Shown here: positions 4,201 to 47,016 of the stretch, in pieces
How the letters are laid out: each line of letters starts with the position of its first letter
How positions within the stretch are numbered: position 1 is the first letter of the stretch
Source: an uncultured Alphaproteobacteria bacterium
GTDB taxonomy: Bacteria; Pseudomonadota; Alphaproteobacteria; Rhizobiales; Rhodomicrobiaceae
Assembly (NCBI GenBank): GCA_963727575.1
Contig: CAVSIA010000038.1
Span: forward strand, 83,551 to 147,550
Direction: 5' to 3'
DNA length: 64,000 bases
Position numbers and translations under genes: made by a program
Notes under the pieces: model-generated
Seen by the model: only the letters and a program-made list of their open reading frames with translations
The model's database searches: none
What the model was told of the DNA's origin: nothing

Positions 4201-4286
4201 AGCCCAACTTGCTCCCTATACCAATTTAGCCGGCGCTTACCGCGCCGTTCGCGAGACCGGGACCTGAAATCCAGAAGCGTGGGTCG

Positions 4287-5405: not shown

Positions 5406-5409
5406 CGGC

Positions 5410-6186: not shown

Positions 6187-7561
6187 CGGCGATGCCTCCG
6201 GCAAATCCATTCGCCATCAGATCACGGACCATCGCCGTATTCACATCGCCCGACCGGAACCGCTCGCTGCGCAGGATATCGAGGTGCAGTTGCGCCGTCG
6301 TCTTCACGCCCTCGACGCGGGTCTCGCCCAGCGCCCGGATCATGCGGTCGATGGCCTCGTTACGGTCCGCGCCCCAGGTGATGATCTTGGCGATCAGCGA
6401 GTCGTAGAAGGGCGGGATCGTGTAGCCGGTTTCCAGATGACTGTCGATGCGCACGCCAGGCCCGCCGGCCGGCAGATAATCGGTGATGCGCCCGGGCGAC
6501 GGCATGAAGTCGCGCTCCGGGTCTTCGGCATTGATCCGGCACTCGATGGCGTGTCCGCGAATGCCGATATCGCTTTGCCGGAGCCCGCTCGACCTGCCCG
6601 TCCGCGATGCGGATCTGCTCTTTGACGAGATCGATACCGGTGATCATTTCCGTAACGGGGTGCTCGACCTGAATGCGCGTGTTCATCTCGATGAAATAGA
6701 ATTTCGCCTCGACGTTGTCGTACACGAATTCGACCGTCCCTGCACTAGTGTAGCCGACGCGCCGGCACAGATCGACGGCCGCCTCGCCAAGCGCCGCGCG
6801 CGTTGCTGCATCGATCGATGCAGCAAGGCGCTTCCTCGATCAGCTTCTGATTGCGCCGCTGCGAGGAGCAGTCGCGCTCGCCGAGATGAATAACGGTTTC
6901 GCCGTCGCCGAGCACCTGCACCTCCAGGTGGCGGATGTCGGTGAGATATTTCTCGATATAGACGGACGGGTCGCCGAAAGCGGCGCCTGGCCTCGCTCAT
7001 CGCCTCGCTCAATCCGCGGTCGAGCTGCGCCGGGTTCTCGATGACGCGCATGCCCCTGCCGCCGCCGCCGGCCGAGGCCTTGACCAGGATCGGAAAGCCG
7101 ATCGCCTCGACGATCCGGCGCGCCTCGTCCGGGTCCGCCACCTTCCCGTCCGAGCCGGGGATGGTCGGCACGCCGGCCTGCTTGGCGATCCTGCGCGCCT
7201 CGATCTTGTCGCCCATCTGGCGGATGATCCCGGCATGGGTCCGATGAAAATGACGTTCTGCTCGCGCGCAGAGCTCGGCGAAAATCGGCATTTTCGGCGA
7301 GAAACCCATAGCCGGGATGGATCGCGTCGACGCCAAGGCGACGGCCGCGCCGACGATGCGTTCCTTGCTGAGATAGCTGCCGGCGGCGCTGGCTCCGCCG
7401 ATGCAGATCGCCCGGTCGGCGCTGCGGGCGGGCAGCGAGCCGGCATCCGCCTCCGAATGGGCAAGGACGCTCTCGATGCCGAGCTCCCGGCAGGCCCGGA
7501 TGATGCGCAGCGCGATCTCGCCGCGATTGGCGACGAGAACCTTGCGGATCGGTCTGGTCAC
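6179..7561 (-). pseudogene. biotin carboxylase (AccC-like subunit of a biotin-dependent carboxylase), at least 3 frameshifts
   Basis: Three ORF fragments (6683..7561, 6360..6725, 6179..6505) together cover a full biotin carboxylase: MTRPIRKVLVANRGEIALRIIRAC..., ...[18 protein letters not shown]..., ...[43 protein letters not shown].... Retranslation shows single-nt indels joining them. Confidence 0.7.
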
Positions 7562-7562
7562 G

Positions 7563-8089
7563 TCAGCTCCCGCTCAGCTTGATGAACATCAGCGGCTGGC
7601 CGTGCTCGACCGGCTGGGCATCTTCGACCAGGATGCGCGTGACCATGCCGGTGACCTTGGCCTCGAGCGAGTTCATCAGCTTCATCACCTCGATGATGCA
7701 GAGCACGGTGTCCTCGCCGACCGCGTCGCCGACCTTGACGAAGGGCGGATCGCCCGGCTTCGGGCAGCGGTAGAAGGTGCCGACCATCGGCGCGGTGATG
7801 AGCGACTCGCCCTCGCCGGCTACCGTCGCGCCGGACGCCGCCGGTGCCGTCTCGGCTTTCGGCTTGGCCGCCGGGACCGCGGCCGGCGGCGCTGCGCGGC
7901 GCGGCGCGGCGATCGCGCTGCTCGCCGCGGGCAGCCGGCGCAAGCTGGCCATCGCCGCGCGACAGGGAAATTTCCACGTCGCCGTATTTCAGCGAAAACG
8001 CGGTGACGTATTCCGTTTCGCGGATCAGATCGATGATCGCCTTGATTTCTTCGAAGTGATTTCATTCCGACACGTCTTTCACTATTCAC
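7563..8089 (-). pseudogene. biotin carboxyl carrier protein, frameshifted
   Basis: Biotinyl domain with CIIEVMKLMN (the E-A/V-M-K-M biotinylation motif). The N-terminal part (EEIKAIIDLIRETEYVTAFSLKYGDVEISLSRGDG) lies in other frames. Confidence 0.6.
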
Positions 8090-9560
8090 TCACTGGACAG
8101 AGATGTTCAATTCTAGGTCGCCGCGTTTGATAAAGACGCTGCGGTGGCGTTCCTCGGCGACGATGGTCTTGATCATCTCCAGAAGCGACATCGAGCCGAG
8201 CGACCGCTTTGGCCCTGCGCGCTCTTCATCTCGTCGACCTGATTGCCCGCGAACATCACCCGCAGCAGCAATTCGTCGTCGCGAGCCGAGGGATATTTCC
8301 TGCGCAGCACGGGAACAGCGGCTCAAGCGGCTTCGGCTCGAGCGGGATGTCCTTGGCGCCGTTGGCAACGATGCGGTCATAGACGTTCGGATCGACCGGA
8401 CCGAGCAGCTTGCCGTAATAGCCGAGCACGTATTTCTTCACTTCGTTCGGCACGATCGCGTAGCGCTCGCCGTGGATGACGTTGAACACCGCCTGCGTGC
8501 CGACGAATTGCGAGAAGGCGTGATCATGATCGGCCAGGCCAGCTCCTCGCGGACGCGCGCGCATTCCTCCAGCAGCTCGTCGAATTTGTGCGCCGAGGCC
8601 GGCCACGCGCAACTGTTCGCGGAAATTGCTCAGCATGCCGCCGGGAATCTGATGCTGGTAATGGAAGTTGTCGTATTCGACCGGCACGCCGACCGGCTTG
8701 CTTCTCGCGCTCGGCGATCTCGGCGAAATGCTCGCTGATCTTGTCGATCAGTTCTCGTCTTTGATGTTGACCTCGAAGCCGAGCTGGCGAAGGTTGCGCG
8801 CCACGGTCTGCACCGCCGGCTGCGCCGCGCCGTTGGCGAGCGGCTTGATCGACAGATGCAGCTGGTCGCAGCCGAGCTTGGCGCCTTCCAGGTAGACCAG
8901 CGGCGCAAGTCCCGTCAGGCAATGGCTGTGGAGTTCGAGCGGCCGGTCCTTCACCACCTTGCGCAGCGCCGGCACCAGCGTGCGGATGCGGTCGACGGTC
9001 AACAGCCCGCCCGCATCCTTGATCATGATGCAGCTCACGTCGGCGCGGTCGATCAGCGCCTTGGCCGTCTTGACGTAATGCTCGTCGGTGTGCAGCGGGC
9101 TTTCGCAGAAAGACAGCGCGCCGAAGGTATAGGCGCCGAGCTGCCTTGGCCGTGCTTGAGCTGGTCGACGATGTTGTCGACGTCGTTGAGGCCGTCGAAC
9201 GCGCCGATAACGCGGAAGCCGTTGGCGTAGAGCCGTTCGACCCAGAGCTGGTTGATGTCGTCGGGCAGGAAGTCGAAGGCGGCGATGCTCTTGCTGCGGA
9301 TCAGCGAGCGGAAGCGCGTGTGCGGCGCCGCCTGATGCACGCGCCGCACGCGCTCCCACGGATCTTCCTGGAGGAAGCGCACGCAGACGTCGAACTGGAC
9401 CGTGCCCATCAGGTCGACGAATTCGAAGCCGATCTCGTCGATCGAGCGGCAGGATCGGCAGCATGTGCTCGGTGCGCATGCGCGTCGACCAGAGGCACTG
9501 GTGGGCGTCGCGGAGCGTCGTGTCGATGACGCGGATTTCTGTCTTTGCGGCTTCACTCAT
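8090..9560 (-). pseudogene. pyruvate-carboxyltransferase-type subunit (PycB/OadA-like, HMGL-like TIM barrel), multiply frameshifted
   Basis: Fragments spread over four frames. One holds MSEAAKTEIRVIDTTLRDAHQ, the carboxyltransferase signature. Others hold the mid (LGAYTFGALSF...IMIKDAGGLLTVDRIRTLVPALRK...ELHSHCLTGLA) and C-terminal (YDNFHYQHQIPGGMLSNFREQL ... RYAIVPNEVKKYVLGYYGKLLGPVDP) regions. Confidence 0.6.
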
Positions 9561-9603
9561 TCGGAGGTTCCAGGAGCTGTTACGGTCGCGGGGCGCAGCG
9601 TGT

Positions 9604-10515
9604 TCAATCGGTCTTTGCGGGCATGATCGGCGGCAGGTGCTCGACGCGGGCGATGTCTTCGAGCAGCAGCAGCATCGCCGTCCAGTCCTCGTTCTCCCGG
9701 TGCCACGGTTTGGCGAGGCTGAACGCCTCACGGGCGATGGCCCCGAGCATCATCGGCACCCCGGCATCGGCCGCCAGCGACAGGGCGTGCGAGACGTCTT
9801 TCTGCGCCATGCGCAGCGGAAAGTCGGGTTCCAGATCGCCCGCGAGCACCTTCTTGGGATAGTTGACCAGCAACTGCCCGCGCCCGGCGGTCGTATTGCT
9901 GAGCACTTCGACGGTGACGGCTCGGTCGAGGCCGACCTTGTTGGCGAGGGTCAGCGCCTCTGCGGTGAGCATCGTGCCGACCATCGACATGTAGTTGTTG
10001 ACCAGCTTCAGGCGGATGCCCATCCCAGCGGGCCCGGCGCGAACGGTCTTGTCGCCGATGCAATCGAAGAGCGGTGCCGCTTCTTGGATGTCGGCTTCGT
10101 CGCCCCCGGCAATGACCAGCGAAGTGCCTGCCGCAGCGTCGCGCGGTGTCCGGCCGAGTGGTGCGTCGACGAAGCGATCGCCGAGATCTCGCACGCGCCC
10201 GGCGATGGCGTCGCTGCCGCTCGCCGAGATGGTGCTCATATCGATGACGAGGCCGCCCTGGCCTAGTCCCCGGCAGGCACCGTCCTCGCCGAGCAGCGCG
10301 GCCTTGACATGGGACACGTCGGGCAGGATCGACATGACCACCTGCGCTCCAGCGGCCGCTTCGCGCGGGCTTGCCGCGACGATGCAGTCAAGGTCGCGGA
10401 ACGGTGCGACTGCTTTCTCGGAGATGTCGAAAACGCGGAGCTTGAACCCGCCGTTGATGAGATTGCGCGCAATGCCGCTGCCCATCACGCCCAGGCCGAT
10501 AAAAGCGACGTCCAT
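9604..10515 (-). CDS. NAD(P)-dependent beta-hydroxyacid dehydrogenase (3-hydroxyisobutyrate dehydrogenase / sulfolactaldehyde-reductase family)
   Basis: Starts MDVAFIGLGVMGSGIARNL (Rossmann motif); 303 aa from the internal Met. The ORF extends upstream through R/G-rich junk that overlaps the next gene. Confidence 0.75.
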   Translation of the reverse strand: MDVAFIGLGVMGSGIARNLINGGFKLRVFDISEKAVAPFRDLDCIVAASPREAAAGAQVVMSILPDVSHVKAALLGEDGACRGLGQGGLVIDMSTISASGSDAIAGRVRDLGDRFVDAPLGRTPRDAAAGTSLVIAGGDEADIQEAAPLFDCIGDKTVRAGPAGMGIRLKLVNNYMSMVGTMLTAEALTLANKVGLDRAVTVEVLSNTTAGRGQLLVNYPKKVLAGDLEPDFPLRMAQKDVSHALSLAADAGVPMMLGAIAREAFSLAKPWHRENEDWTAMLLLLEDIARVEHLPPIMPAKTD

Positions 10516-10517
10516 GA

Positions 10518-11303
10518 TCAAACTCCCTTCGACGCGGGATTTCCCCCGTAAGGGGCCCAGCCCTGCAGGGCAAGAAAGCCGCCGTCGCACGGCACGGTGC
10601 AGCCGACGATTGCACCGGATTGCGGCGACAGCAGAAACCGGATGACTTCGGCGACCTCCTCGGGGCGCAGCAGGGTGCCGGTCACGGTCGTCCGCGCCAG
10701 GGCGCCCATGTCCCGGACCTGCCCCTCTTTCTTCTTGCGGGTGAGGAAGGGCGTGTCGGTCCAGCCCGGCGCGACGGCGTTGACGCGCACGCCCTTGTGT
10801 CCGAATTCGCCCGCCAGGATCGTGGTCAGATTGACGATCGCGGCCTTTGCCGGCGCGTAGGCGTATGTCGGCCCTGGGCTGAAAGCGGTCACGGACGCCA
10901 CGTTGACGATCGCTCCGCCCTTGCCGTGTTCGGCCATGCGGCCGGCAAACTCCCGGCAGGTCAGGAACGTCCCCTTCAGATGTGAGCCGACGACGACGTC
11001 CCATTCGTCCACCGGCATTTCATTGGCGAGGCCCGGCACTTGCGGCGCGCCCGCGCAGCAGACCAGGCCCGAGATCGGGCCGAAATCGCGTTCGACACTG
11101 TCGGCAGCGGCGGCGAGACTGCCGGCGTCGACGGCATTGCAGGCATAGGCTTGCGCGCCGCTGGGGAAACTCTCCGCAGCCGCCTTGCACCGGTCGAAAT
11201 CGATGTCCAGCAGCGCAACGCGGCCACCGCCCTCGTGAACCAGCCGCGCGGTCGCCAGGCCGATACCGCTGGCGCCCCCCGTTATGACCGTTACCCCATG
11301 CAT
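10518..11303 (-). CDS. SDR-family oxidoreductase
   Basis: VITGGASGIG, NVAS..., YAYAPAKAA motifs. A GAGGA RBS lies about 7 nt upstream. Confidence 0.75.
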   Translation of the reverse strand: MHGVTVITGGASGIGLATARLVHEGGGRVALLDIDFDRCKAAAESFPSGAQAYACNAVDAGSLAAAADSVERDFGPISGLVCCAGAPQVPGLANEMPVDEWDVVVGSHLKGTFLTCREFAGRMAEHGKGGAIVNVASVTAFSPGPTYAYAPAKAAIVNLTTILAGEFGHKGVRVNAVAPGWTDTPFLTRKKKEGQVRDMGALARTTVTGTLLRPEEVAEVIRFLLSPQSGAIVGCTVPCDGGFLALQGWAPYGGNPASKGV

Positions 11304-11313
11304 GGGAGGTTCC

Positions 11314-12586
11314 TCATTTCACGAACATCAAGGAAAGCTGCGGGACGAAGGTGATGATCAGTAGCGTGACGATCAGCACGGCAACATAGGCCATGGCCGT
11401 CCGCGCAATCTCCGAGAATGGCGCCCCCGACATGGCCGAGGCGACGAACAGGTTGAGACCGATCGGCGGGGTGATGAACCCGACAGCGAGCGTCGAGACG
11501 ATGATGACGCCGAAATGGATCGGATTGAAGCCCATCTGCGTTCCGATCGGCACCAGGATCGGCGACAGCAGCAGGATGTTGGGCGCCGCCTCCATGATGC
11601 ATCCGACGATCAGCAGCAGCACCAGGATCGCAAGGGTCCGCAGGAAATTGCTGTCCGAAAAGCTCATGAAGAAGTCGAGCATGGCCGCCGGAATCCGGAG
11701 CATGGCGATGTTCTGCGAGAACACCAGGGCGATGGCGACGACGGGAGCGATCAGACCACAGATCTGTGCGCTTCTGTTCAGGACCGCGGGCACCGAGCGT
11801 AAATTGATCTGGCGGGTCACGAACAACCCGACGCACAGGCAGTAGACCGCCGCAACGGCCCCCGCCTCGGTGGGCGTGAAGATGCCGGCATAGATCCCGA
11901 TAAGGATGATGGCGACAGCGCCGATCGCCCATTTCGTGCCGTATGCCGTCCGGCCGAGATTGCCCCAGGTGAACGGTGTGCTCAGGCCATATCCCCGGCG
12001 CTTGCAGATAACCCAGGCCGTAACGGCCATGACGGCGACCATCAGCAGGCCGGGCAGGATGCCGGCGATGAACAGGTCGCTGACGCTTACCCCGACGGTG
12101 ACGCCGTAGAGCACGAAGGCGATGCTGGGCGGGATGATGATGCCGACCACGCCGCCCGGCGGCAACCGTGCCGGCGGCGAAGGACCGTGGATACCCCTCT
12201 TCCTTCATCGTCGGCAGCACGACCCGGCCGACGGTGGCGACCGTCGCCGCGTTCGACCCGCTGATGGCGGCGAAGATGCCGGACGCGACGAGCGTGGCGA
12301 GCGCAAGACCGCCGCTGAGCCATCCCACTGCGGCGCGCGAGAAGCGCATGATCTGGTGGGCGATGCCGCCCGCGGCGATCAGGTCGCCGGTGACGACGAA
12401 CAGCGGCAGCGCGATCAGCGGAAACAGATTGAGCGAGTCGAACATCGTCAGACTGATGTTCATCAGCGGAAACTGCTTCGTGACCAGCGTCAGCAGGATC
12501 GCGCCGATCCCGAGCACGGTGACGACCTCAACGCCTGCGAAGAACAGCACGGTGAGCAGAATGATGATCCAGTCAAGGCTTCCCAT
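11314..12586 (-). CDS. dctM: TRAP transporter large permease DctM; frameshift near 12170
   Basis: The N-terminal 140 aa (ORF 11291..12586) and the C-terminal 283 aa (ORF 11314..12165) are both clear DctM sequence in different frames and join at ...MKEEGYP. Confidence 0.75.
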
Positions 12587-12620
12587 CGTCGATTATCTCA
12601 CCAGCGTTAATGCCGAGCGC

Positions 12621-13136
12621 TCAGTCCAGTGCGGCAAATTCCATGATCAGAGGTTCGTTGGCGCGATAGCGGATGATCGAATCGATCGAACGCTGCACGA
12701 CGCGGATCGACACCAGCAGCCAACCGAACGGTATCGCCGCCGTCGCCAACCAAAGCGGGAGATTCACGCCCATCATCTGCTGCTCGAACATCACGTTGTC
12801 GGCGATCGGCTGATAGATGTAGATGATGACGACCGCGCTCAGCGCCAGGAGGCAGACGTCGGCAAGCAGAAGCATCGCGAGCTGTGCCGGAGGCGGCAGC
12901 GCGTCCCTTATGGCGGTAAATGCGAGATGCGAGCGCGACCTGGCGAGGCCGGCCATCGAGATGTAGGTCAGCCAGATGAACGCGTAGATGCTGGTTTCCT
13001 CCGCCCACAGAATGGACGAGCCGAAACCGTAGCGGGCGACCACCTCGCCGAACACGACGGCAATGATGTAGATGTAGAGCAGCACGCCGAGCACGAATTC
13101 GACGTTCTTGTCGATGGCGGCGATGATCGAGCGCAT
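12621..13136 (-). CDS. dctQ: TRAP transporter small permease DctQ
   Basis: 171-aa protein with four TM helices, starting MRSIIAAIDKNVEF, inside ORF 12621..13520. An intergenic 9-bp-stem hairpin sits immediately upstream. Confidence 0.7.
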   Translation of the reverse strand: MRSIIAAIDKNVEFVLGVLLYIYIIAVVFGEVVARYGFGSSILWAEETSIYAFIWLTYISMAGLARSRSHLAFTAIRDALPPPAQLAMLLLADVCLLALSAVVIIYIYQPIADNVMFEQQMMGVNLPLWLATAAIPFGWLLVSIRVVQRSIDSIIRYRANEPLIMEFAALD

Positions 13137-13149
13137 GAGGGTCTCCCGA

Positions 13150-14394
13150 AGGCCAAGAACCGGTCCGCAGCGGTTGCGGACCGGCATCGTCAATGCTACT
13201 TCCACCAGCGCCGCGGCGTCGGATCGCCGGACTGCGCCAGCCTTGGCCACCAGCTCGTATTCCTTGCGGCCATATTGGTCGATGAGGCCGTTGAGCTTGT
13301 CCTTGTTGCGCTCGACGGACAGGTAGTCCTTCCACTCGGCGCGTTCGCCGTCGGTCAGATTGATGATCTTGGTGTTGCCGGCTTTCCAGCCGACCTTGGG
13401 CGAGTTCGGGCTTGACGCCGATGGCGTCGCGCAGCATCGGCTCGAAGTCGTCGTAGATCTTCTTCTGCACGACGAACGCGGCTTCCATGATGACGTCTTT
13501 GAGCTCGGGCGGGAGGGCATCCACCCAGCTCGTGTTCAGCCAGATGCCATCGGAATTGTACATCCATCCCGTATCGACGATCTGCCCGATGACCGGGGCC
13601 ATGCCGCCGTCATAGACCGATGTCGGCGAGACATGGATGCCGTCGACCGCGCCGTCCTTCAGTGCCGTGAACACTTCCGACCAGGCGATCGGCGTGCCGT
13701 TGGCCGGCAGGATCTCGAATGCGGCCTGTTCCAGCTTGGACCCGGTGACGCGCATCTTCATGGCGTCGAGATCGGCGGGCTTCCTGACTTCCTTCTGCAC
13801 GGTCTGCGACATCTCCAGCCAGCGCGGCACCGGAAGCAGGAAGGCCAGCATCAGCCGGCGCTTGGCCGAATCGGCCCGCACCGTGTCGTTGAATTCCTTG
13901 CTGAAATAGACCTTCCAGGCATTCTCCTGCGCTCCGATCGCATAGGGCACGTCGGTGACGTTCCAGATCGGCGCGAGCTGGGCGGCATTCTGGGTCGAGC
14001 AGGAGCCGCCCTGAATGATGCCTTGCTGGACCTTCTTCAGCGCCGTGGTCTGCGAGCCGAGCGCTCCGGCGTCGTGAATGTCGACGTAGATCTGGCCGTT
14101 GCTCTTCTCCTCGACCTCCTGCTTGAATTCGGGCGAGCCGATGATCCAGGTCGAATGCTTGATGACCGGCCGGTCCGGAAATTTGTTCAGCGTGCCGTCG
14201 AGGCCGAGCGTGAGCACATGCTTGGCGGCGGCCTTCTTCTCCGCTTCGCTCGCGGCGGCCTCGGCGAAGCTCAGCGCTCCGCGGGCAAACATGTAGGTCA
14301 TGCCGACGCTGGCGACCGCCGCGCCATATTTGGCGGAGATCTTAAGTGCTTCGCGGCGGGTCAGTATGTTACGGGGATGTTTCGGGCTTCCCAT
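13150..14394 (-). CDS. dctP: TRAP transporter substrate-binding protein DctP with Tat-type signal; frameshifts near 13395 and 13160
   Basis: MGSPKHPRNILTRREALK... signal, then a DctP-family fold (ORF 12607..14394 as far as ...AIGVKPE). The C-terminal 80 aa (KIINLTDGERAEWKDYL...YELVAKAGAV) are in the frame of ORF 12621..13520. A GGGAGGA RBS lies 5 nt upstream of the ATG. Confidence 0.7.
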
Positions 14395-14428
14395 TTCGTC
14401 CTCCCTGGGTTCATTCAGTTGCCGGAGG

Positions 14429-15943
14429 TCACCGATCTTTCGCCGGTTGACCTTGGGGGTTCCATTCGATCTGCGGAATGTTGGTGATCGGCGGCGGTGG
14501 CCAGTGGTTACCGCGCTGCGCGGAGAGGGTCCGATTGCCGCCGGGCGTAAACGGTTTGGCGGGCAGGCCTTTCAACACGCCGTTCTCGGCCCAGGCTTCG
14601 TCACCGCCGTAAAGCTCGGCGATGAGCAACGCGGTCAGCTTGCGCCGCACATCGGCATAGCGCTCATCGTCGGCGATATTGACTTCCTCGGTCCTGTCTT
14701 CCTTGAGATCGAACAGGAGAACCGCGTTGCCGACAGGGTAATAGATCAGCTTAAAGTGGCCGTCGCTGACCATGCGCGAGGCGTGATCGTCATCGGCGAC
14801 TTCGCAATAGATGTAGTCGCGCCGCTTGTCGCCGATCGCGGATATGCCTTCCGCATGCGCAGGGATCGGGATGTCGCAAAGGTCGAGCAAGGTCGGCATG
14901 ATGTCGGCCCACCCAACCAGCCGGTCGTCGACTTTCCCTTCCGGCACGCGGGCGCTCCCGCGCGCCCCGATCAGCAGCAGCGGCACGTTCACCGATGGCT
15001 GGAACAGCACGCGCTTGGCCCACATGTCGTGGTCTCCGAGCATATCGCCGTGGTCGGACGTGAAGCAGATGATGGTGTTGTCCAGCAGTCCCTCTTCCCG
15101 AAGCGTTCCGATCAGCACACGGATCTGGTGGTCGAGATGGGTGCAGAGGGCGTAAAAGGCGCGGCGAATGTCCCGCACGGCGGTGGCGTTGAACTTGCGG
15201 CCGCGTGTGATCGAAGACTGCAACGCGAATGGCAGGTCGTCGAGATTCCGGCTCCACGCCCCTTTGCGCGGCTCGTCGATTTCGACATCCCGGTACATGT
15301 CGAGATAGTCACGGAGCGGCACCATCGGCGGATGCGGATGCCGGTAGGAGCAGTACCAGAACGCCGGGCGCGTCGGGTCGCGGCGCTTGATCGTGCGCGT
15401 CATCTGCTGCGTCGCCCAATTGGTGGCGTGCAGCTCTTCCGGCAAATGCCAGGGCCGGTTGACGTAGTCGTTGTTGCTCATGCCATGCATGAACTGGGCG
15501 CCCGGATGCCCCTTCTCCGCGAGGAACATCTCATAGTCGTCGGTGACGCCGTAGAGGGTGCGTCCTTCCTCGTCGAGGATGACGTCGTCGAAGCCGATGC
15601 GATTGCGCTGGGGATAGACGTGCAGCTTGCCGACAGCGAAAGCCTGATAGCCCGCATCCCGGAAGCATTGCGCCATTGTCGGCACATCCGGCATTTCGAG
15701 CTTTTCCTTGTACATCCTGTCGCCGTGGCTGCGCGGCGTCAGGCTCGTATGCAGCGTGCGCCTGGCGGGGATGCACACCGGACATTCGGTCATGGCATTG
15801 GTGAAGCGGATGCCGCAGCGGGCGAGTTCATCGAGCGATGGCGTCTTGATCGCCGGATGCCCGGCTATACCGAGCAGGTCCGCCGGCCAGTGATCGGTGC
15901 AAATCAGAAGGACATTCGGCCTTGCGGCTCCGTCGTTCGCCAT
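14429..15943 (-). CDS. sulfatase-family hydrolase (arylsulfatase/choline-sulfatase-like, Cys-type)
   Basis: 504 aa. N-terminal NVLLICTDHWP, C-x-P-x-R-like maturation site (CIPARRT), and a conserved GKLHVY... core. Confidence 0.8.
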   Translation of the reverse strand: MANDGAARPNVLLICTDHWPADLLGIAGHPAIKTPSLDELARCGIRFTNAMTECPVCIPARRTLHTSLTPRSHGDRMYKEKLEMPDVPTMAQCFRDAGYQAFAVGKLHVYPQRNRIGFDDVILDEEGRTLYGVTDDYEMFLAEKGHPGAQFMHGMSNNDYVNRPWHLPEELHATNWATQQMTRTIKRRDPTRPAFWYCSYRHPHPPMVPLRDYLDMYRDVEIDEPRKGAWSRNLDDLPFALQSSITRGRKFNATAVRDIRRAFYALCTHLDHQIRVLIGTLREEGLLDNTIICFTSDHGDMLGDHDMWAKRVLFQPSVNVPLLLIGARGSARVPEGKVDDRLVGWADIMPTLLDLCDIPIPAHAEGISAIGDKRRDYIYCEVADDDHASRMVSDGHFKLIYYPVGNAVLLFDLKEDRTEEVNIADDERYADVRRKLTALLIAELYGGDEAWAENGVLKGLPAKPFTPGGNRTLSAQRGNHWPPPPITNIPQIEWNPQGQPAKDR

Positions 15944-16015
15944 TTCCTCACCTGTTGTTTTCTTGTTTTTGTTTGATCCGCGCCGGTTTTCCCGGCGGCA
16001 GCACGCTCATCGTCG

Positions 16016-17323
16016 TCAGTCAGCCGCCTCCGCATACGGAACGTTCCGGCCGCCATAGCGGCGGACGCGGATATTGGCCTGCTCGGCATGTCCGCGGAAG
16101 CCTTCCAACATGCAAAGCCGCGAGCAATATGCGCCGACCATCGCCGACGCCTCATCGGTCTCCACCTTCTGCCAGGAGCATGTCTTGAGAAACTTGCCGA
16201 CCCACAATCCGCCGGTGTAGCGCGCCGCGCCCATCGTCGGCAGCGTATGGTTGGTGCCGATGACCTTATCGCCATAGGCGACATTCGTACGTGGTCCCAT
16301 GAACATCGCGCCGAAATTGGTCAGATTGTCCCGGAACCAGTCATCCCGATCCGTCATCACCTGGACGTGCTCGGAGGCGATGCGGTCAGCCTCGGCGAGC
16401 ATCTCTTCGTAGGAGTCGCAGACGATCACCTCGCCGTAATCGGCCCAGGACTGGCGGGCGATTTCAGCGGTCGGCAGGATTGTGAGGAGCCGCTCGACCT
16501 CGGCGATGGTTTCCCTGGCCAGTTTCTCCGAATTGGTCAGCAGGATCGAGGGCGAGGTCGGTCCATGCTCGGCCTGGCCGAGAAGGTCAGTCGCGCAGAT
16601 CTCGGCGTCGACCGTCTCGTCGGCGATCACCAAGGTCTCGGTCGGCCCCGCTAGAAGATCGATCCCGACGCGGCCGAACAGCTGGCGCTTGGCTTCGGCG
16701 ACATAGGCGTTGCCGGGGCCGGTCAGCATATCGACCGGGTCGACGGTCTCGGTCCCCAAAGCCATTGCGCCGATGGCCTGGACACCGCCAAGGACCAGGA
16801 TCTGATCGGCACCTGCCAAGTGCATCGCCGCGACGATCGCCGGATGCGCTCCGCCTTTATAGGGCGGCGCGGTGGCGACGATCCGCTTCACGCCGGCGAC
16901 TTTCGCGGTGACGACGCTCATATGGGCCGAGGCCACCATCGGGTAGCGCCCGCTCGGCACATAGCAGCCGACGGCGCCGACGGGGACGTTGCGGTGTCCG
17001 AGGATCACGCCCGGCAGGGTCTCGACTTCCAGATCCGTCAGGCATTCCTTCTGGCGTTCGGCGAAGTTCCGGATCTGCGCCTGCGCGAACCGAATGTCCT
17101 CCAGATCGCGGGCGGCGACCTGGGCGACGGCGTCCTCGATTTGTTTCGGGCTGAGGATGAAAGAGTCCGGGCTCCAGTCGTCCAGACGCTGGGACAGGTC
17201 GCGGACAGCCGCATCGCCGCGGCGGCTGATGTCGGCGAGAATGGTCTCGACGGTTTCGCGAACTCTCGCGTCCGCTTCAGCCTTCTCGTCAGCTCCAATT
17301 CCGCGTTTCAGATACCGGGTCAT
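16016..17323 (-). CDS. histidinol dehydrogenase family protein (HisD paralogue; HpsN / sulfopropanediol-3-dehydrogenase-like)
   Basis: 435 aa with the HisD-family fold throughout. Its genomic context (sulfatase, TRAP, sulfonate genes) argues for a paralogue rather than the histidine-biosynthesis enzyme. Confidence 0.75.
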
Positions 17324-17352
17324 TTCACACCTGATTGAGCTGTGTTAAGACT

Positions 17353-17366
17353 TGCAAACGTATGCA
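17353..17366. promoter_or_regulatory. LacI-type operator TGCAAACGTATGCA in the divergent promoter region between the HisD-like operon and FGE
   Basis: Matches the LacI-family consensus TGnAAnCGnTTnCA. The same motif recurs near 20369 and 33145. Confidence 0.4.
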
Positions 17367-17498
17367 GGACTTGTCAAGCGACTTCGCGCATCGCGATTTT
17401 GAGAAGGCACGGTGCTGACGAATGCGAGAAAAATCGCTGCAATAGCGAGCGGGCATGTGCTTCAATGACGCCGCGCGCGGCACCCAGGCATTGGAAGA

Positions 17499-18380
17499 AT
17501 GATGAGCGACAGCAGTAGGTTAGGCATTCGAGAGGCAGGGAACGTCGTCAGTCTGCCGGGCGGTGAGACCGTGGTCGGAACATCGCATCCGGTGATCGCA
17601 GCGGACGGCGAAGGGCCTGGCCGCCGCGTGAAGCTGCGTCCGTCTCGGATCGGCCGGTACGCCGTCACCAATGCCGAGTTCGGCGCCTTCGCAAAGGCGA
17701 CGGGCTACCTCACGGACGCCGAGCGCTTTGGCTGGTCCTATGTGTTTTACCTGCTGCTGCCGGAAGACCGGCGCGCCGGTCCGGTGCCGGAGGGGACCAG
17801 TTGGTGGCGCGTCGTCGAAGGGGCCAGCTGGCACGCACCGGAGGGACCGGATTCGTCGGTCGATGGACGACAGAACCATCCCGCCGTGCACATGTCCTGG
17901 AACGACGCTAGCGCGTTCGCCGTCTGGGCCGGAGGCCGCCTGCCGACGGAAGCCGAATGGGAGCACGCGGCGCGGGGCGGCCTTCCAAACCCAAAATTTC
18001 CCTGGGGCGATGACGAACCGGATGATGAAACCGTCTTCTGCAACATCTGGCAGGGACGCTTTCCCGACCAGAACACGCTGCGGGACGGCTATCTCGGCGC
18101 AGCCCCCGTCGACAGCTTCGCCCCGAACGGTTACGGGCTCCACAATATGTCGGGCAATATCTGGGAATGGTGCGCCGACGCATTCCGTATCCGCTCGCTT
18201 TCGAAGAGCGCCAAAAAGCGCAACGCCCTCGCCGCCGCGGAAAACGAGCGCGTGGTCAAGGGCGGATCGTATCTCTGCCACCGAAGCTATTGCTACCGCT
18301 ACCGCATCGCAGCACGCAGCGGCCGCAGCCCAGACACCTCGGCCGGAAACACCGGCTTCCGGATCGCCTTCGATCTTTGA
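17499..18380 (+). CDS. formylglycine-generating enzyme (FGE/SUMF1 family, sulfatase-maturating)
   Basis: 293 aa with typical FGE motifs (RLPTEAEWEHAARGG, GNIWEWCAD, GGSYLCHRSYCYRYR). Confidence 0.8.
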   Translation: MMSDSSRLGIREAGNVVSLPGGETVVGTSHPVIAADGEGPGRRVKLRPSRIGRYAVTNAEFGAFAKATGYLTDAERFGWSYVFYLLLPEDRRAGPVPEGTSWWRVVEGASWHAPEGPDSSVDGRQNHPAVHMSWNDASAFAVWAGGRLPTEAEWEHAARGGLPNPKFPWGDDEPDDETVFCNIWQGRFPDQNTLRDGYLGAAPVDSFAPNGYGLHNMSGNIWEWCADAFRIRSLSKSAKKRNALAAAENERVVKGGSYLCHRSYCYRYRIAARSGRSPDTSAGNTGFRIAFDL

Positions 18381-18415
18381 ACGCCGCTCCCATGCGAGCG
18401 CCTAAACGAACCGAA

Positions 18416-19927
18416 ATGGGGAGGAAAACCTTGTCAGATCCGAAGCAAGCGGGGGTTGGCGCCGTCACTGCCAGTTCCGCCGAGGCCGCCGAAGCCGGCG
18501 AAACTATCCTGTGCGCCGGCGGCAATGCGGTCGACGCTGCCGTCGCCACCGCGCTCGCATCCTGCGTCACCGATCCGTGCAACACCGGCCTCGGCGGCTA
18601 TGGCGGCCACATGGTCATTGCACAGGACGGCCCGCCGATATGCGTCGATTTCAATGCCTGGACGCCGGCCGGAACCGAGGCGTCCGCGCCGCGCGCCGGG
18701 ATCGGCGCCAGCACCGCGCCGAGTGTGGTCGCCGGATTGTCGGTCGCGCTCGACCGGTTCGGCTCGATGGATTGGGCGCAAGTGAGCGCGCCAGCGATCG
18801 CCCTGGCGGAGCGCGGCGTAAAAACCAACGCAGCGACCTCTCGCGCATTCGACCAGGCCAAAGGCGCGGCTGTTCTCGCCGAATGCTTCGTGTTCGACGA
18901 AACCGCGGCCGGCGTCACCTTCCGCCAGCCCTTGCTGGCAAAAACGCTGCGTACCCTCGCCGATCAGGGCGCCGGCTGGTTTTATCACGGCCCTAACGCC
19001 GAGCTCGGCAGCCGGCTGCTGAGCGACAATGGCCGTCCGGTCACGCCCGATCAGTGGCGCAATGCCGTCGACGCCGTGGGCGTTGCGTCCGCCCCGTCGC
19101 TGCGGGTGGGCGACACAGTCCTTTACTCGGCGCCGCTGCGCACCAGCGGTTCCCCTTGCATGTTCGCGACCGCGGCGGCGGGGGCCGGGATCGCAGAGTG
19201 CCAGAAGCTCGGATCTCCCGCCGCCGTCGCCGAATGGGCGAGGACCATGGCCTCGATCTGGAGCTACAGGTTCGGGACCGAAACCGGCAACGCGTTCGAA
19301 AACATCGCTCTCGAACAATGGGTTGCCGTCGCGATAGGCTTCCACGAGCCCGCCAGCCCACGCCTCGGGACCGGACATACCTGCCATCTCAACGCCGCAG
19401 ACAGTCGCGGCGGACGCGTTGCCCTGACGCTGACCCACGGCCCCCGATGGTTCGGCGCGCGATGGGCGCTGCCCGACACCGGCATCGTGATGAACCTGGG
19501 CGGCGCGATGTTCGGCATCCCCGGCCCCGTCGACGGCGAAGGCCGCAGATACGGCGTGACCAACATGTCGCCGACGCTTGCGATGAGCGACAACGGCGCT
19601 CAGATCGCCATTGGCTGCCCCGGCGGCAAGCGCATCCCGGGCATCGTCGCAACCGCGCTGGTCCGGCATTTATTCGCCGGCTTCGGCCTCCAGGAGGCAA
19701 TTTCGCTCGGCCGCTTCCATGCCGAAGATTTGAGCCGGACGACGCTGGAGACCGGGCGATGGGACCAGGCAACGCGCGATGCCTTGGGCGATGTGTTCGC
19801 TGCGGTGGGCGACGAGAAGCCGGAGGAATATTACGGTCCGCTGACCGCAATTGCATACGATCCGGACGGGGCGGTTTCGCTTGGTCTCGACGACCGCTGG
19901 CAGGGCTATGGCACGATCGTTCGCTAA
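18416..19927 (+). CDS. gamma-glutamyltransferase family protein
   Basis: GGT-fold throughout (GGNAVDAAVATALA..., GTGHTCHLNAADSRG Thr-nucleophile region). Start uncertain: Met at 18392 or 18416, or a TTG at 18428 preceded by GGAGG. Confidence 0.7.
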   Translation: MGRKTLSDPKQAGVGAVTASSAEAAEAGETILCAGGNAVDAAVATALASCVTDPCNTGLGGYGGHMVIAQDGPPICVDFNAWTPAGTEASAPRAGIGASTAPSVVAGLSVALDRFGSMDWAQVSAPAIALAERGVKTNAATSRAFDQAKGAAVLAECFVFDETAAGVTFRQPLLAKTLRTLADQGAGWFYHGPNAELGSRLLSDNGRPVTPDQWRNAVDAVGVASAPSLRVGDTVLYSAPLRTSGSPCMFATAAAGAGIAECQKLGSPAAVAEWARTMASIWSYRFGTETGNAFENIALEQWVAVAIGFHEPASPRLGTGHTCHLNAADSRGGRVALTLTHGPRWFGARWALPDTGIVMNLGGAMFGIPGPVDGEGRRYGVTNMSPTLAMSDNGAQIAIGCPGGKRIPGIVATALVRHLFAGFGLQEAISLGRFHAEDLSRTTLETGRWDQATRDALGDVFAAVGDEKPEEYYGPLTAIAYDPDGAVSLGLDDRWQGYGTIVR

Positions 19928-20004
19928 CTTGGGACGGGCCTCCCGCAACGGCGGTGAACGTCTTAGTCCCGGACCCGATTGCGATAATTGTCATCCGCGT
20001 GCGC

Positions 20005-20034
20005 TTGACAGCTTCGCCGGAACGTCCCTATCTT
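20005..20034 (+). promoter_or_regulatory. candidate sigma70-type promoter (TTGACA, 18 nt spacer, TATCTT) for the downstream ABC transporter operon
   Basis: Sequence match only. It lies in a 518 bp intergenic region. Confidence 0.3.
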
Positions 20035-20368
20035 TGGTATTCAATTCGGAAATCGAGACCGTTTGTTTCGATATGCTGTGCCTTAAGGGAAGCGACTTCC
20101 CGATGTCGAACGCCGACGACACCGCCGTCCATGCCCGATCGGAGAGCAGCGAGATCACGCTGCGCGGAGCGTGGAGGTGATGGCCTGGATCTTGGCCGGC
20201 GGGGCCGACACGTCTGGACGAATCGATGCAACCGGGGCGACGCGCGCCCTATCCGAATTCGACGCCTGCTCGTCAGCCGCCGGACGAAAGACAGGCGACA
20301 CACCTTAGCCCGATGGAGATCGCCGCAATCGCTGTGTAATGCACAGCCAAATGTATCAGACGCCAGTT

Positions 20369-20403
20369 TGCAAACGTATGCGTTTTGCCTTTGCAGCAAA
20401 GGC
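20369..20403. promoter_or_regulatory. LacI-type operator TGCAAACGTATGCG followed by a 17-bp perfect palindrome GCCTTTGCAGCAAAGGC, upstream of the sulfonate-type ABC transporter
   Basis: Direct sequence observation. The motif is shared with sites at 17353 and 33145. Confidence 0.4.
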
Positions 20404-20451
20404 GGCGAGGCCAAGCAGGCAATAAGCAATGGGAGGAAAGTCCAATTGGCG

Positions 20452-21279
20452 ATGACGACGATGGGCGGCGCCGAGACGACCGGTACCGCCGCCACCGGTA
20501 ATACCGGCAGCGGACTGAAAACGGTCCTGTGGAACGCTGCTTCACTGCTGATCGCCCTCGCGATCTGGCAGGTCGTGGCGATACTCGTTGCCTCGCCGTT
20601 CTTCCCCGGCCCCGTCGCCGTGCTCAATGCTTTCATCCGGCTCAGCTCCCGCGGCGACACCTTCGGAAACTCGCTCTGGACCCATTCCTGGGCAAGCATC
20701 GAGCGTGTCCTCGTCGGCTTCGGGCTCGGCGTTCTGGGGGGCGTTCCACTCGGCCTGCTGCTGGGGCTTTATCCGGCATGGTATGCACGGACCCGCTCGG
20801 TGCTGGAGCCGTTCCGCTTCATCCCTCCGATCGCGTGGATCCCACTCGCCATCATCTTCTTTTCCGGCCTCACCCGCTTCGCCTTTCTGATTTTTCTGGG
20901 TGCGTTCTTTCCGGTGTTTACGTCCACCCTCGTCGGTGTCGCCCGCGTCGAGCCGATCCACCGCAAGGTCGGCCTCGTGCACGGTGCCAGCAAAGCCTGG
21001 ACGCTATTTCATGTCGTCGTGCCCACCGTGCTGCCCGACATTCTCGCCGGCATGCGGGTCGGCCTCGGCGCCGCATGGCTGACCATCGTCGCGGCCGAGC
21101 TGGCCGGCGGGATTTCCGAGGGTTTAGGGCGCATGATGATCAATTATGCGGAGCTTCTCCAAGTACCCGAGGTCATCGTCGGTATGCTGCTGATCGGCTT
21201 CATCGGCTTCGCAATGAACGAAGTGCTGCTGCTCGCCGAGAGATACCTGTTCCGCTGGCGATGGCAGGTCAGCTTGTAA
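20452..21279 (+). CDS. ABC transporter permease, NitT/TauT family (SsuC/TauC-like)
   Basis: 275 aa; six-TM BPD-transporter permease with an EAA-like loop. It is the C-terminal part of the long ORF 19054..21279, whose upstream portion is Arg-rich junk. Confidence 0.75.
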   Translation: MTTMGGAETTGTAATGNTGSGLKTVLWNAASLLIALAIWQVVAILVASPFFPGPVAVLNAFIRLSSRGDTFGNSLWTHSWASIERVLVGFGLGVLGGVPLGLLLGLYPAWYARTRSVLEPFRFIPPIAWIPLAIIFFSGLTRFAFLIFLGAFFPVFTSTLVGVARVEPIHRKVGLVHGASKAWTLFHVVVPTVLPDILAGMRVGLGAAWLTIVAAELAGGISEGLGRMMINYAELLQVPEVIVGMLLIGFIGFAMNEVLLLAERYLFRWRWQVSL

Positions 21280-21289
21280 TGGGGCCGAT

Positions 21290-22099
21290 ATGCTGAAGAC
21301 CACGCACGGACAGGCTCCCGCCAAGGTCGAGGTCGACACCTCGCACCGCTACGGCGATCTGGTGGTCCATGAGCACCTCAAATTCGCGGTCGCCGCCAAT
21401 GAATTCGTCTGTATCTGCGGCCCCTCGGGATGCGGCAAGACCACGCTCCTGGACAGCCTCGCCGGCATTCTGAAGCCGACCGGCGGACATGTGCTGATCG
21501 ATGGCGCTCCGGCTGACCCGAAGCGGCAGAGCATCTCGTTCGTGTTCCAGGAACCTTCGACATTTCCGTGGCTTACGGTCAAGAACAACGTTGCGACCGG
21601 CCTCAGGGTGAAAGGCGGCGCGAGGAGCGACATTGACCGGAAGGTGCGCGAGACCATTGAGATCGTCGGCCTCACGGGCTTCGAGGATTACTATCCTCAC
21701 CAGATTTCCGGCGGCATGAAGCAGCGCGTTGCGATTGCGCGCGCTTTTGCGACGGATGCCGATCTCATTCTGATGGACGAGCCGTTCGTCAGTCTCGATC
21801 AGCCGACGCGCGAGCGCATGCAGAGGGAAGTGCTGGACATCTGGCGGCATCGTCTGCGTACGGTGATTTTCGTCACCCACAATATCGAGGAAGCCATCTT
21901 CCTCGCCGACCGCATTCTCATCCTTTCGGAAAAGCCTTCGCGGATCATCGCCGACATTACCGTCGAAATTCCCCGTCCGCGTGATCCGCTTGCATACGAA
22001 TTCACCGAATTGCGCGGCGAATGCGCCCGCCTGCTCACCCGACCCGCTGAATCGGCCGGAACAGCGCCACCGCCTCAGCTCCGCAAAGCGCGAACATAG
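21290..22099 (+). CDS. ABC transporter ATP-binding protein, NitT/TauT family (SsuB/TauB-like)
   Basis: Walker [10 protein letters not shown], signature [14 protein letters not shown], Walker B LILMDEPF. Confidence 0.8.
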
Positions 22100-22155
22100 G
22101 CAACCAACGACAAAAATCCGCGATCAAGCGGAAACCCTCAAACTGGGAGGATCCA

Positions 22156-24416: not shown

Positions 24417-24440
24417 CGAATGCCTGCGGAGCCAGCGGGT

Positions 24441-24559
24441 TAGAGCGTGATCAGGAAAAGTGGAAAACGGTTTTCCCTCCGATCACGCGATCAGCAAAGG
24501 AATTTTGGAGCGGGCCAAAAGCGAAGTAGTTTCTATCCAAGGTGATCCCGCTCTAGAGC
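24441..24559. repeat. about 119-bp MITE/RIME-like intergenic repeat with terminal inverted repeats (copy 1)
   Basis: About 80% identical to 42951..43066. Terminal inverted repeats TAGAGCGTGATCAGG / GGTGATCCCGCTCTAGA, internal 8-bp stem GCGTGATC/GATCACGC enclosing GGAAAACGGTTTTCC, and an end palindrome CCGCTCTAGAGCGG. Confidence 0.6.
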
Positions 24560-26331: not shown

Positions 26332-26417
26332 CGTCGCAGTTCCTTTCAGGTCCCTCGCAAGGGTATTCGATGTGAGAGCGTTGCATGGGCGCCGGGCGGG
26401 CAAATCGAAATCAGCTC

Positions 26418-28447: not shown

Positions 28448-28466
28448 CTGCGACGAAGCCTCGTTT

Positions 28467-29918: not shown

Positions 29919-30059
29919 CGCTTTGGCCTCCAGTCGTCCCCCCGGACGCTCTGCCCGGGGCCATCTTCCACATGTCTCATTCCGGTTCGGTCGGCCGGAG
30001 AGGCAACATCCAATTCCGTCAGCCCACTGACGGGACGCCGCCTCGCCGGCCTTTCGACG

Positions 30060-31031: not shown

Positions 31032-31077
31032 ATCTCAGTGTCGTTTCGTCCCGGTATCCAGGATCTTCCTTCTTGTC

Positions 31078-46997: not shown

Positions 46998-47016
46998 TGC
47001 GAAGGGCGCGGCCGAC

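Follow-up and report, generated by a model that had tools for sequence, protein, structure and literature searches.

Which compound would a bacterium take up and break down with a sulfatase, the maturase of that sulfatase, a HisD-family dehydrogenase and a tripartite ATP-independent periplasmic (TRAP) transporter encoded side by side? The question is raised by positions 9604-19927 of a 64,000-nucleotide stretch of contig CAVSIA010000038.1 (assembly GCA_963727575.1, positions 83,551 to 147,550 of the forward strand) from an uncultured alphaproteobacterium of the Rhodomicrobiaceae; we refer to the whole stretch as the window. A first-pass annotation had described the locus as a seven-gene minus-strand operon transcribed divergently from genes for a formylglycine-generating enzyme (FGE) and a γ-glutamyltransferase (GGT), and had likened it to the catabolism of 2,3-dihydroxypropane-1-sulfonate (DHPS) and sulfolactate. 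We find this observation to be real but incomplete, and its interpretation to be partly supported: it is right in spirit, in that the genes form a coherent sulfatase-linked organosulfur cluster tied to xsc, and wrong in equating the HisD paralogue with HpsN. The gene arrangement is more than chance and recurs in ten other loci of different lineages. The cluster probably serves the uptake and breakdown of a small compound that is sulfated or otherwise conjugated, and is unlikely to represent canonical DHPS catabolism. We give about an even chance to the more specific proposal that the whole island is one LacI-controlled catabolic unit for a small anionic sulfo-compound arriving in conjugated form.

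Extent, conservation and shared operator

Genes in the window, which has a G+C content of about 65%, were called from third-codon-position G+C together with profile searches, and comparison loci outside the window carry L numbers (L002, L168 and so on). Searches with Pfam and NCBIfam profiles found all nine genes of the earlier list at 9604-19927, and as a gene list the earlier description stands. As to extent it does not: the minus-strand operon continues on the same strand past 9604 to about 3316, making it about twice as long as described, and its dctP and dctM genes are frameshifted as sequenced. The added genes encode a carboxyltransferase (CT), a biotin carboxyl carrier protein (BCCP), a biotin carboxylase (BC), a short-chain dehydrogenase/reductase (SDR2), a LacI-family regulator (LacI-1) and a β-keto acid cleavage enzyme (BKACE, DUF849), and the earlier reading had thus left out both the ATP-dependent carboxylase and the BKACE of the operon. 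This order in the 3′ extension is that of the intact sister loci, as seen when proteins of L168 and L169 were mapped back by tblastn. On the plus strand, the unit extends beyond the GGT gene into genes for an ATP-binding cassette (ABC) importer, comprising a permease, an ATPase and an SsuA/NMT1-like binding protein (about 20452-23166; Pfam BPD_transp_1, ABC_tran and NMT1).

Sulfatase orthologues of at least 67% identity occur in the cluster at ten loci (L002, L083, L084, L106, L163, L168, L169, L173, L174 and L175), where their partners are HisD-like, TRAP, SDR1, YihU-like, carboxylase or ABC genes in varying order. Among the roughly 150 loci whose sulfatase homologues have at most 66% identity, none has a CT gene and one (L061) has a HisD-family match, at 45% identity and about 8 kb from the sulfatase gene. 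The order sulfatase-DctPQM-SDR1-YihU-like-CT-BCCP-BC is common to L169, L173, L174 and L175; it is followed by the HisD-like gene in L169 and L173 and then by a second SDR gene in L173, and the contigs of L174 and L175 stop before that point. In L168, genes for a BKACE and a glucose-methanol-choline (GMC) oxidoreductase come after the BC gene, and the other strand carries FGE-IclR-ABC (permease, ATPase, NMT1-type binding protein). The sulfatase gene heads the carbon operon, directly before dctP, in L002, L168, L169, L173, L174 and L175, and lies directly before dctP in the window and L163 as well, while the BKACE slot at the operon end is equivalent in L168, L179, L180 and the window. The position of the HisD-like gene varies (upstream, downstream or divergent), which argues that the association is under selection rather than being one inherited arrangement. 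The lineages concerned include a Hyphomicrobiales-like organism (the window), an Aquisalimonadaceae metagenome-assembled genome (MAG; L002) and a Usitatibacter MAG with a GGT variant of the cluster (L180). The cluster is kept in the Alpha-, Beta- and Gammaproteobacteria sampled and is widespread in marine and soil metagenomes.

A LacI-type operator, the imperfect palindrome TGCAAACGTATGCA, links the cluster to an adjacent operon. One copy (17353-17366) lies in the divergent promoter region, 30 nt upstream of the start codon of the HisD-like gene; a second (20369-20382) is found about 70 nt upstream of the gene for the ABC permease and a third (33144-33157) in the promoter region of the sauS-xsc operon, these last two having one or two mismatches. 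In the window 0.27 sites would be expected. The earlier proposal of co-regulation with xsc is therefore supported in this genome by three copies of one operator before the HisD-like, ABC and sauS-xsc genes. The motif, whose imperfection let it escape an inverted-repeat search, recurs at orthologous intergenic positions in L083, L163/L164 (at the ABC-gene position too) and L169, and also in a sulfur-free Roseibium cluster. LacI-1 (4416-5393, minus strand), which is 47-56% identical to the LacI proteins encoded beside HisD-like and SDR2 genes in L002, L083, L169 and L173, is the candidate binder of this shared operator. The adjacent operon (23250-33290, minus strand; Pfam and NCBIfam matches) comprises tctA, tctC, sauS, a sucCD-like ADP-forming CoA ligase, xsc and ackA, and the gene for a second regulator, LacI-2 (33236-34252), lies beside it on the plus strand. 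Both sulfonate enzymes score well above their model cut-offs (Xsc, 1042 bits against 620; SauS, 780 bits against 600).

Between the GGT and ABC permease genes lies about 500 nt of apparently non-coding DNA (19928-20451), in which a remnant of the iclR gene present there in sister loci was not detectable. A σ70-like promoter match falls inside this gap (20005-20034), and the promoter and terminator consensus scan as a whole did no better than shuffles.

Enzymes and transporters of the cluster

The HisD paralogue (16016-17323, minus strand; PF00815, 2.9e-135) scores 407 bits against a solved HpsN (8v35) and 262 bits against the best solved HisD (4g07). HpsN enzymes carry the motif G-R-Y-A/S-H, whose final residue, His126, binds the sulfonate, and HisD enzymes the motif G-S-A-P-L (PMC11382572). 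The window protein reads G-R-Y-P-M, with Met in place of the sulfonate-recognising His126. The motif G[RK]YPM is found in 116 of its 120 closest homologues, a further one having GRYPI and three being unmatched by the search pattern; CpHpsN, 8wwe and a Leisingera enzyme have GRYAH or GRYSH, and the two solved HpsN structures have one each. The HpsN catalytic residues Glu318, His319 and Asp352 and the Zn ligands Gln248, His251 and His411 are kept (GQAEHG, SEH, GDK and the C-terminal His being aligned), as is the second sulfonate contact, Lys353, and the pocket flank is more hydrophobic (GDKVIG vs GDKTSG). With GRYPM and GDK instead of G-S-A-P-L and GDY, and with its gene in a catabolic operon, the protein is placed outside bona fide HisD. 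It nevertheless passes TIGR00069 (438 bits, cut-off 244), which accounts for the 'hisD' names in NCBI records; JGI labels members of the same clade sulfopropanediol 3-dehydrogenase. The gene neighbourhood by which HpsN has been recognised (hpsO, hpsP and a sulfolyase gene; PMC11382572) does not surround it, and Xsc is encoded about 7 kb away in a separate operon. On these residues the paralogue belongs to a sister clade of HpsN and is not HpsN itself. Its earlier likening to HpsN survives as greater nearness to HpsN than to HisD and falls as an equivalence, and the DHPS/sulfolactate analogy is weak for this enzyme, because His126 is absent and the clade is frequent where sulfur genes are lacking.

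Members of this GRYPM clade keep a fixed partner, represented in the window by SDR2 (5410-6216, minus strand; Pfam adh_short_C2, 1.2e-60), which is 57-67% identical to the SDR adjoining every examined HisD-like gene of the clade and 35% identical to HpsO. With their own SDR and often a LacI gene, and with no sulfur genes nearby, they occur in Chelatococcus, Aminobacter, Klebsiella, Roseibium, Sulfitobacter and Octadecabacter. Plasmid-borne members group closely, at 60-76% identity to the query, and below them there is a gap; the two plasmid loci that we read at under 49% identity, from Leisingera and Pseudomonas sp. MPC6, hold true HpsN in cysteinolate clusters. Sulfatase-linked members of the clade are not monophyletic and lie scattered among unlinked ones in the identity matrix, and for this reason the GRYPM enzyme probably catalyses one and the same reaction in all its settings, in which a primary alcohol neighbouring a hydroxyl or amine is oxidised by four electrons. 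It probably acts on no sulfonate but on a desulfated or non-sulfonated intermediate.

The clade, whose motif in these loci takes the wider form G[RK][YF]PM, and its SDR, often with LacI, make up a widespread mobile unit (L001, L162, L165-L167 and L170-L172, including Rhizobium johnstonii pRL8) that is often near genes for a cupin, an α/β-hydrolase and an RraA- or HpcH-type aldolase. In the two plasmid loci with true HpsN (L176, Leisingera, 5065-10390; L177, Pseudomonas sp. MPC6, 5900-14544), the gene stands beside those for a CuyA-like desulfhydrase, an aminotransferase, a racemase and a sulfate-exporter-family protein; the Leisingera HpsN reads GRYSH, and the clusters fit the cysteinolate pathway of PMC12814064.

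The sulfatase (14429-15943, minus strand; PF00884, 7.8e-43) is of the Cys type, with the maturation motif C57-I-P-A-R and the metal ligands TDH and SDHGD kept in all eight orthologues and corresponding to D20, C61, D311 and H312 of EfAS. It lacks a signal peptide, for which its N-terminus leaves no room, and on these features it is a cytoplasmic enzyme. The FGE encoded on the opposite strand (17499-18380, plus strand; PF03781, 7e-71, 239 bits) scores 320 bits against the Thermomonospora curvata enzyme 5nxl, its catalytic Cys pair LCHRSYC aligning with LCHESYC, and by this measure is a canonical aerobic FGE. The pairing of the two, which the first-pass annotation had called coherent, is supported by the Cys maturation motif and metal ligands of the one and both catalytic Cys of the other. 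Substrate-class models placed the sulfatase below the NCBIfam cut-offs for choline sulfatase (TIGR03417, 190/433), arylsulfatase (PRK13759, 404/481) and Mn arylsulfatase (260/850). Its closest solved relatives, 7oz8 and 9koq, gave no clue to a substrate, one being a gut glycan sulfatase of unstated subfamily and the other a promiscuous Mn arylsulfatase. The best match in a scan of a genome collection outside which the window's own species falls was 71% identical, and a homologue in the isolate Oceaniglobus, compared as a protein alone, is 73% identical.

The GGT-family gene (18416-19927, plus strand; PF01019, 1.8e-53) is a single intact open reading frame (ORF) for an N-terminal nucleophile (Ntn) hydrolase with the nucleophile motif T-C-H and no signal peptide. 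At 158.6 bits it falls below the cut-off of TIGR00066 for γ-glutamyltransferase (357.85), and it is a family member at the Pfam level only. Two further CT contexts that we read, in a CT family wider than the sulfatase clade, place this gene among recurrent partners of the cluster rather than accidental ones. L179 has GGT-IclR-ABC divergent from CT-BCCP-BC-BKACE, its GGT, which heads the ABC operon, being 50-54% identical to that of the window; in L180 the order is GGT-DctPQM-SDR-HIBADH-CT-BCCP-BC-BKACE-ABC, a GGT-family gene occupying the sulfatase slot. The window holds both the sulfatase and the GGT-family hydrolase, which we read as two cytoplasmic 'de-capping' alternatives, each for a different conjugate of one core compound.

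Two more dehydrogenases are encoded downstream of the transporter. The β-hydroxyacid dehydrogenase (9604-10518, minus strand) was rightly assigned to the family that includes sulfolactaldehyde reductase: it scores 227 bits against PDB entry 6sm7 vs 142 for the next structure, and 276.9 bits against NCBIfam sulfolactaldehyde 3-reductase (NF012005), which is below the cut-off of 348 and above the next family at 171. The sulfonate pocket of YihU (Arg123 backbone, Asn174, Ser178) is kept in the window protein and five orthologues as PLGRT and KL[VI]NNYMS. SDR1 (10518-11303, minus strand; Pfam adh_short_C2, 3.2e-47) is 51-67% identical to the SDR in the same slot of L002, L084, L168, L169, L173, L175 and L180 and 24% identical to HpsO; no informative solved relative of it was found.

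Uptake would involve two systems. The TRAP genes dctP (about 13233-14394; Pfam DctP, 8.9e-42), dctQ (12621-13136; Pfam DctQ, 1.4e-23; 69% identical to the L168 DctQ) and dctM (11314-12586; DctM profile over two frames), all on the minus strand, include a binding protein whose orthologue has as its closest solved relatives the DHPS protein HpsK and an isethionate binding protein. In the L168 DctP orthologue, all five residues of the HpsK sulfonate anchor and cap (Ser125, Asn128, Arg184, Arg207 and Trp230) are identical, and Trp, Asn and Asp stand in place of the hydroxyl contacts Tyr75, Asp272 and Gln274; the overall identity between the binding protein and an HpsK is about 28%. The ABC genes are 74-82% identical to those of L168 and stand directly after the sulfatase gene in L083 and L106, and their binding protein matches SsuA_fam at 86 bits.

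The carboxylase genes, all on the minus strand, encode a CT of the pyruvate-carboxylase-B/OadA (5S) type (8096-9551; Pfam HMGL-like and PYC_OADA), a BCCP (7581-8055; tblastn with the L168 protein) and a BC (6218-7561; Pfam Biotin_carb_N and CPSase_L_D2). The window CT, though frameshifted, is 71-79% identical to that of L168, which scores 415 bits against NF006761 (cut-off 402) and has the metal and oxo-acid motifs RDAHQ, KDAGG (KD.GG) and HSH (H.H); the L168 BC scores 681 bits against NF006367, and the BCCP orthologue carries the biotinyl-Lys motif EVMKL. The BKACE (3316-4215, minus strand) has 70% identity over 294 amino acids by tblastn to that of L168, an orthologue that matches the NCBIfam KCE/BKACE models. 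Enzymes of this family convert a β-keto acid and acetyl-CoA to an acyl-CoA and acetoacetate (PMC11961710).

Proposed pathway and competing explanations

Taken as a single unit, these genes suggest the following scheme. The TRAP and SsuA-like ABC systems would import the substrate, from which the cytoplasmic formylglycine sulfatase, matured by the adjacent FGE, would take off an O-sulfate; the GGT-family hydrolase would take an amide or γ-glutamyl cap off a related conjugate. Four NAD(P) dehydrogenases, namely SDR1, the YihU-like enzyme with its anion pocket, the HisD-like enzyme (four-electron, alcohol to acid) and SDR2, would then oxidise the carbon skeleton to an oxo-acid, which the ATP- and biotin-dependent pyruvate-carboxylase-type enzyme may carboxylate, and the BKACE would cleave a β-keto acid, with acetyl-CoA as co-substrate, to give acetoacetate and an acyl-CoA. 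The operator would, in this genome, also control conversion of sulfoacetyl-CoA through sulfoacetaldehyde to acetyl-phosphate by the sauS, xsc and ackA operon. Gene identities, catalytic motifs, conserved synteny, the exchange of sulfatase for GGT in one slot and the common operator are observed; the order of the steps, the idea that the ester cleaved by the sulfatase is a sulfate of the carbon substrate, and any particular substrate are inferred. The most economical substrate candidates would be O-sulfated C2-C4 diols or hydroxy-acids.

Several points weigh against a single sulfo-compound unit. The GRYPM clade, which has no sulfonate-binding His, is common in loci free of sulfur genes, and its sulfatase-linked members are scattered as described above. 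TRAP anchors of the sulfonate type also serve carboxylates in other TRAP proteins, and the anion anchors of DctP and the YihU-like enzyme, able to hold carboxylates too, are suggestive only and no proof of a sulfo group. No xsc or sauS gene lies within 10 kb of the cluster at other loci, the two being near it in the window only, and no precedent for a pyruvate-carboxylase-type enzyme followed by a BKACE is described in the literature searched. Among candidate substrates, sequence alone selects none of 1,2-propanediol, glycerol, lactate or glycerate sulfates, cysteinolate, γ-glutamyl-taurine or oxamate-type amides. Finally, the frameshifted genes mean that the window copy may not work.

This last point bears on whether the cluster in this genome is a decaying remnant, with dctP, dctM and the three carboxylase genes reduced to pseudogenes and the pathway lost. 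Nine frameshifts fall in exactly these five genes of the cluster (dctP 1, dctM 1, CT 3, BCCP 1, BC 3), and the sulfatase, HisD-like, SDR1, YihU-like, FGE, GGT, SDR2, LacI, BKACE and ABC genes are intact. The dctM profile is matched at positions 2-139 in one frame and 139-413 in another, with an extra G in a G run near 12165, and the gene is contiguous in L002 and L168; dctP residues 14-333 and 331-393 align by tblastn in different frames around 13405. The CT is in pieces in three frames, its HMGL-like and PYC_OADA domains lying in separate ORFs and two single-G insertions standing 10 nt apart at about 9150, and alignment with L168 by tblastn places the BC in three frames and the BCCP in two. 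Three of the four junctions inspected are single extra Gs in short G runs, the dctP junction being unresolvable to a single event. Frameshifts also split unrelated genes of the window (a LolD-like ATPase, an RbsA-like ATPase and a Mo-hydroxylase subunit), bringing the total to at least 13 in 64 kb, at about 1670, 6218-9551, about 12165, about 13405, about 45150 and about 62100, and the affected cluster genes are still 61-87% identical to intact orthologues, with no internal deletions. Because single-G insertions in G runs are typical of consensus errors and unrelated genes are split alike, the frameshifts are probably errors of an indel-prone assembly rather than signs of gene decay, and loss of the pathway is in our view unlikely.

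Similarly unlikely is a variant DHPS or sulfolactate pathway built from non-orthologous parts, in which the sulfatase would be accessory, serving a co-occurring sulfate ester. TRAP would import DHPS, the YihU-like and HisD-like enzymes would make sulfolactate, the SDRs would make sulfopyruvate and the sulfonate carbon would end at Xsc. Such a scheme draws on the nearness of the HisD-like protein to HpsN, the conserved YihU pocket, the DHPS and isethionate proteins as the closest solved binding proteins, the 35% identity of SDR2 to HpsO, the operator common to the cluster and the xsc/sauS operon, and a set of four dehydrogenases like that of hpsNOP with slcD. It has to contend with Met for His126 beside a more hydrophobic pocket, with a clade found mostly where sulfur genes are lacking and with the changed hydroxyl-binding residues of HpsK; the Zn-ADH HpsP, SuyAB, CuyA, SlcD and ComDE were not found among the window ORFs scanned, and the carboxylase, the BKACE and the conserved slot of the sulfatase or GGT are left unexplained. 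More doubtful still is a juxtaposition of two units, an ats-like one for scavenging sulfate esters (sulfatase, FGE and SsuA-like ABC importer) beside a carbon operon for a non-sulfur diol or oxo-acid. The SsuA-like ABC importer and cytoplasmic formylglycine sulfatase do resemble Pseudomonas atsRBCA, the HisD-like/SDR2/LacI unit is mobile and occurs alone, and the wider sulfatase family is found in many other contexts. Yet the sulfatase gene is the first of the carbon operon, before dctP, in six loci, and its slot is taken by a GGT-family hydrolase in L180; the association is confined to the orthologous sulfatase clade; and copies of one LacI-type operator stand before both the sulfatase operon and the ABC genes, with no regulator of sulfur starvation seen.

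An undescribed route that uses carboxylation and β-keto cleavage to supply Xsc with a sulfonate is about as improbable as that juxtaposition. After removal of the O-sulfate or amide cap, the dehydrogenases would yield a sulfo-ketone or sulfo-oxo-acid, which the biotin carboxylase would convert to a 4-sulfo-3-oxo acid; the BKACE and acetyl-CoA would turn this into acetoacetate and sulfoacetyl-CoA, and the co-regulated SauS and Xsc would then desulfonate the product. If true, this route would be a sulfonate analogue of carnitine breakdown and would give a biotin carboxylase its first role in organosulfur catabolism. In a still more radical and purely speculative variant, the formylglycine enzyme would itself hydrolyse the C-S bond of a β-oxo-sulfonate, by analogy with phosphonoacetate hydrolase of the same superfamily, which hydrolyses a C-P bond.

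Relation to known systems and significance

The claim that this combination matches no described pathway is borne out, in that no description of the cluster was found in the literature searched, and the cluster is a variant among organosulfur catabolic systems without an earlier description there. It is closest in outline to the hpsKLM-hpsNOP clusters for DHPS of Ruegeria pomeroyi and Cupriavidus pinatubonensis (PMC11382572, PMC13335735), for which we used the plasmid of Rhodobacteraceae SC52 (L178) as the example compared. In both, import is by TRAP, a HisD-family four-electron dehydrogenase has an SDR as its partner, the dehydrogenases number four and there is a link to desulfonation by Xsc; the SC52 regulator, 37% identical to LacI-2 of the window, has a LacI-type substrate-binding domain. 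In contrast, identities are 47-48% for the HisD-like enzyme of the window, in which His126 is missing, 35% for SDR2 against HpsO and 28% for the binding protein against HpsK, with its changed hydroxyl contacts; HpsP, SuyAB and SlcD are missing, whereas the sulfatase with its FGE, the GGT, the biotin carboxylase, the BKACE and the ABC importer are additional.

Other systems share parts of the scheme. The YihU-like enzyme has about 47% identity (estimated from the alignment) over 281 residues to YihU of Escherichia coli sulfoglycolysis and shares its pocket motifs, yet scores below the NCBIfam cut-off (277/348), has no sulfoquinovose genes nearby and would likely run in the oxidative direction. 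In Pseudomonas atsRBCA, a cytoplasmic formylglycine sulfatase and an ABC importer with an SsuA/TauA-like binding protein scavenge sulfur under sulfate starvation, whereas the window sulfatase heads a carbon-catabolic operon behind a LacI-type operator. The BKACE reaction is shared with carnitine-type breakdown by a dehydrogenase and BKACE, that of the window instead having a 2-oxo-acid-type biotin carboxylase and a sulfatase or GGT as its partners. The sauSTU and xsc pathway has its SauS and Xsc equivalogs next door under the same operator. The described pathway has SauT, which is AMP-forming, and SauU, a major facilitator superfamily transporter, where the window has a SucCD-like ligase and a TctABC-type importer of the tripartite tricarboxylate transporter (TTT) kind.

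The acesulfame pathway of Shinella (PMC11500405) is alike in that an amide hydrolase follows a cytoplasmic formylglycine sulfatase, that acetoacetate is produced and that an exporter of the TauE/SafE type is found nearby, and differs in that its amidase belongs to the amidase-signature family and not to GGT. Its sulfatase was rejected as a relative, having a different motif (the canonical CxPxRxxxLTGR) and being absent from the plasmid matches to the window sulfatase at E<=1e-80. Unlike acesulfame, the substrate of the window cluster is natural, because the cluster is widespread in marine and soil metagenomes.

At the comparison loci, genes for anion exporters or transporters flank the cluster, which fits a sulfo-compound substrate: a TauE/SafE gene lies upstream of it in the Aquisalimonadaceae MAG (L002, 5578-6396) and a SulP/STAS gene downstream of it in L169 (13773-14016). 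In L163 (11385-19808) and L164 (4191-12614), seven short ORFs stand beside the HisD-like gene, two of them with weak or faint Nif11-family matches; with a C39-peptidase ABC exporter, a second ABC exporter and a membrane-fusion protein, this array looks like a locus for a ribosomally synthesised peptide with post-translational modifications (RiPP) or a bacteriocin. Elsewhere in the window, two further catabolic gene groups have no copy of the operator: one (39708-47985) encodes a PfkB kinase, a KDPG/KHG aldolase, a LacI regulator and a sugar-type ABC system, and the other (48062-54512) a β-oxidation-like set with a family III CoA-transferase, an acyl-CoA dehydrogenase, an enoyl-CoA hydratase, a thiolase and an AMP-forming ligase.

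Small organosulfonates such as DHPS, sulfolactate and isethionate rank as major currencies of sulfur cycling in the sea and in soil, and small sulfate esters are far less explored. Whatever its substrate, the cluster described here brings a dedicated sulfatase of the cytoplasm, along with its maturase, together with transport and redox enzymes of the sulfonate type, a biotin carboxylase and a BKACE. The change of His to Met in its dehydrogenase also provides a simple sequence rule against over-annotation of HpsN in metagenomic surveys of DHPS metabolism. Identification of the substrate would add an organosulfur nutrient and a pathway to those known, and would at the same time give functions to the GRYPM clade of HisD-family enzymes, to a clade of sulfatases and to a cytoplasmic GGT-family hydrolase.

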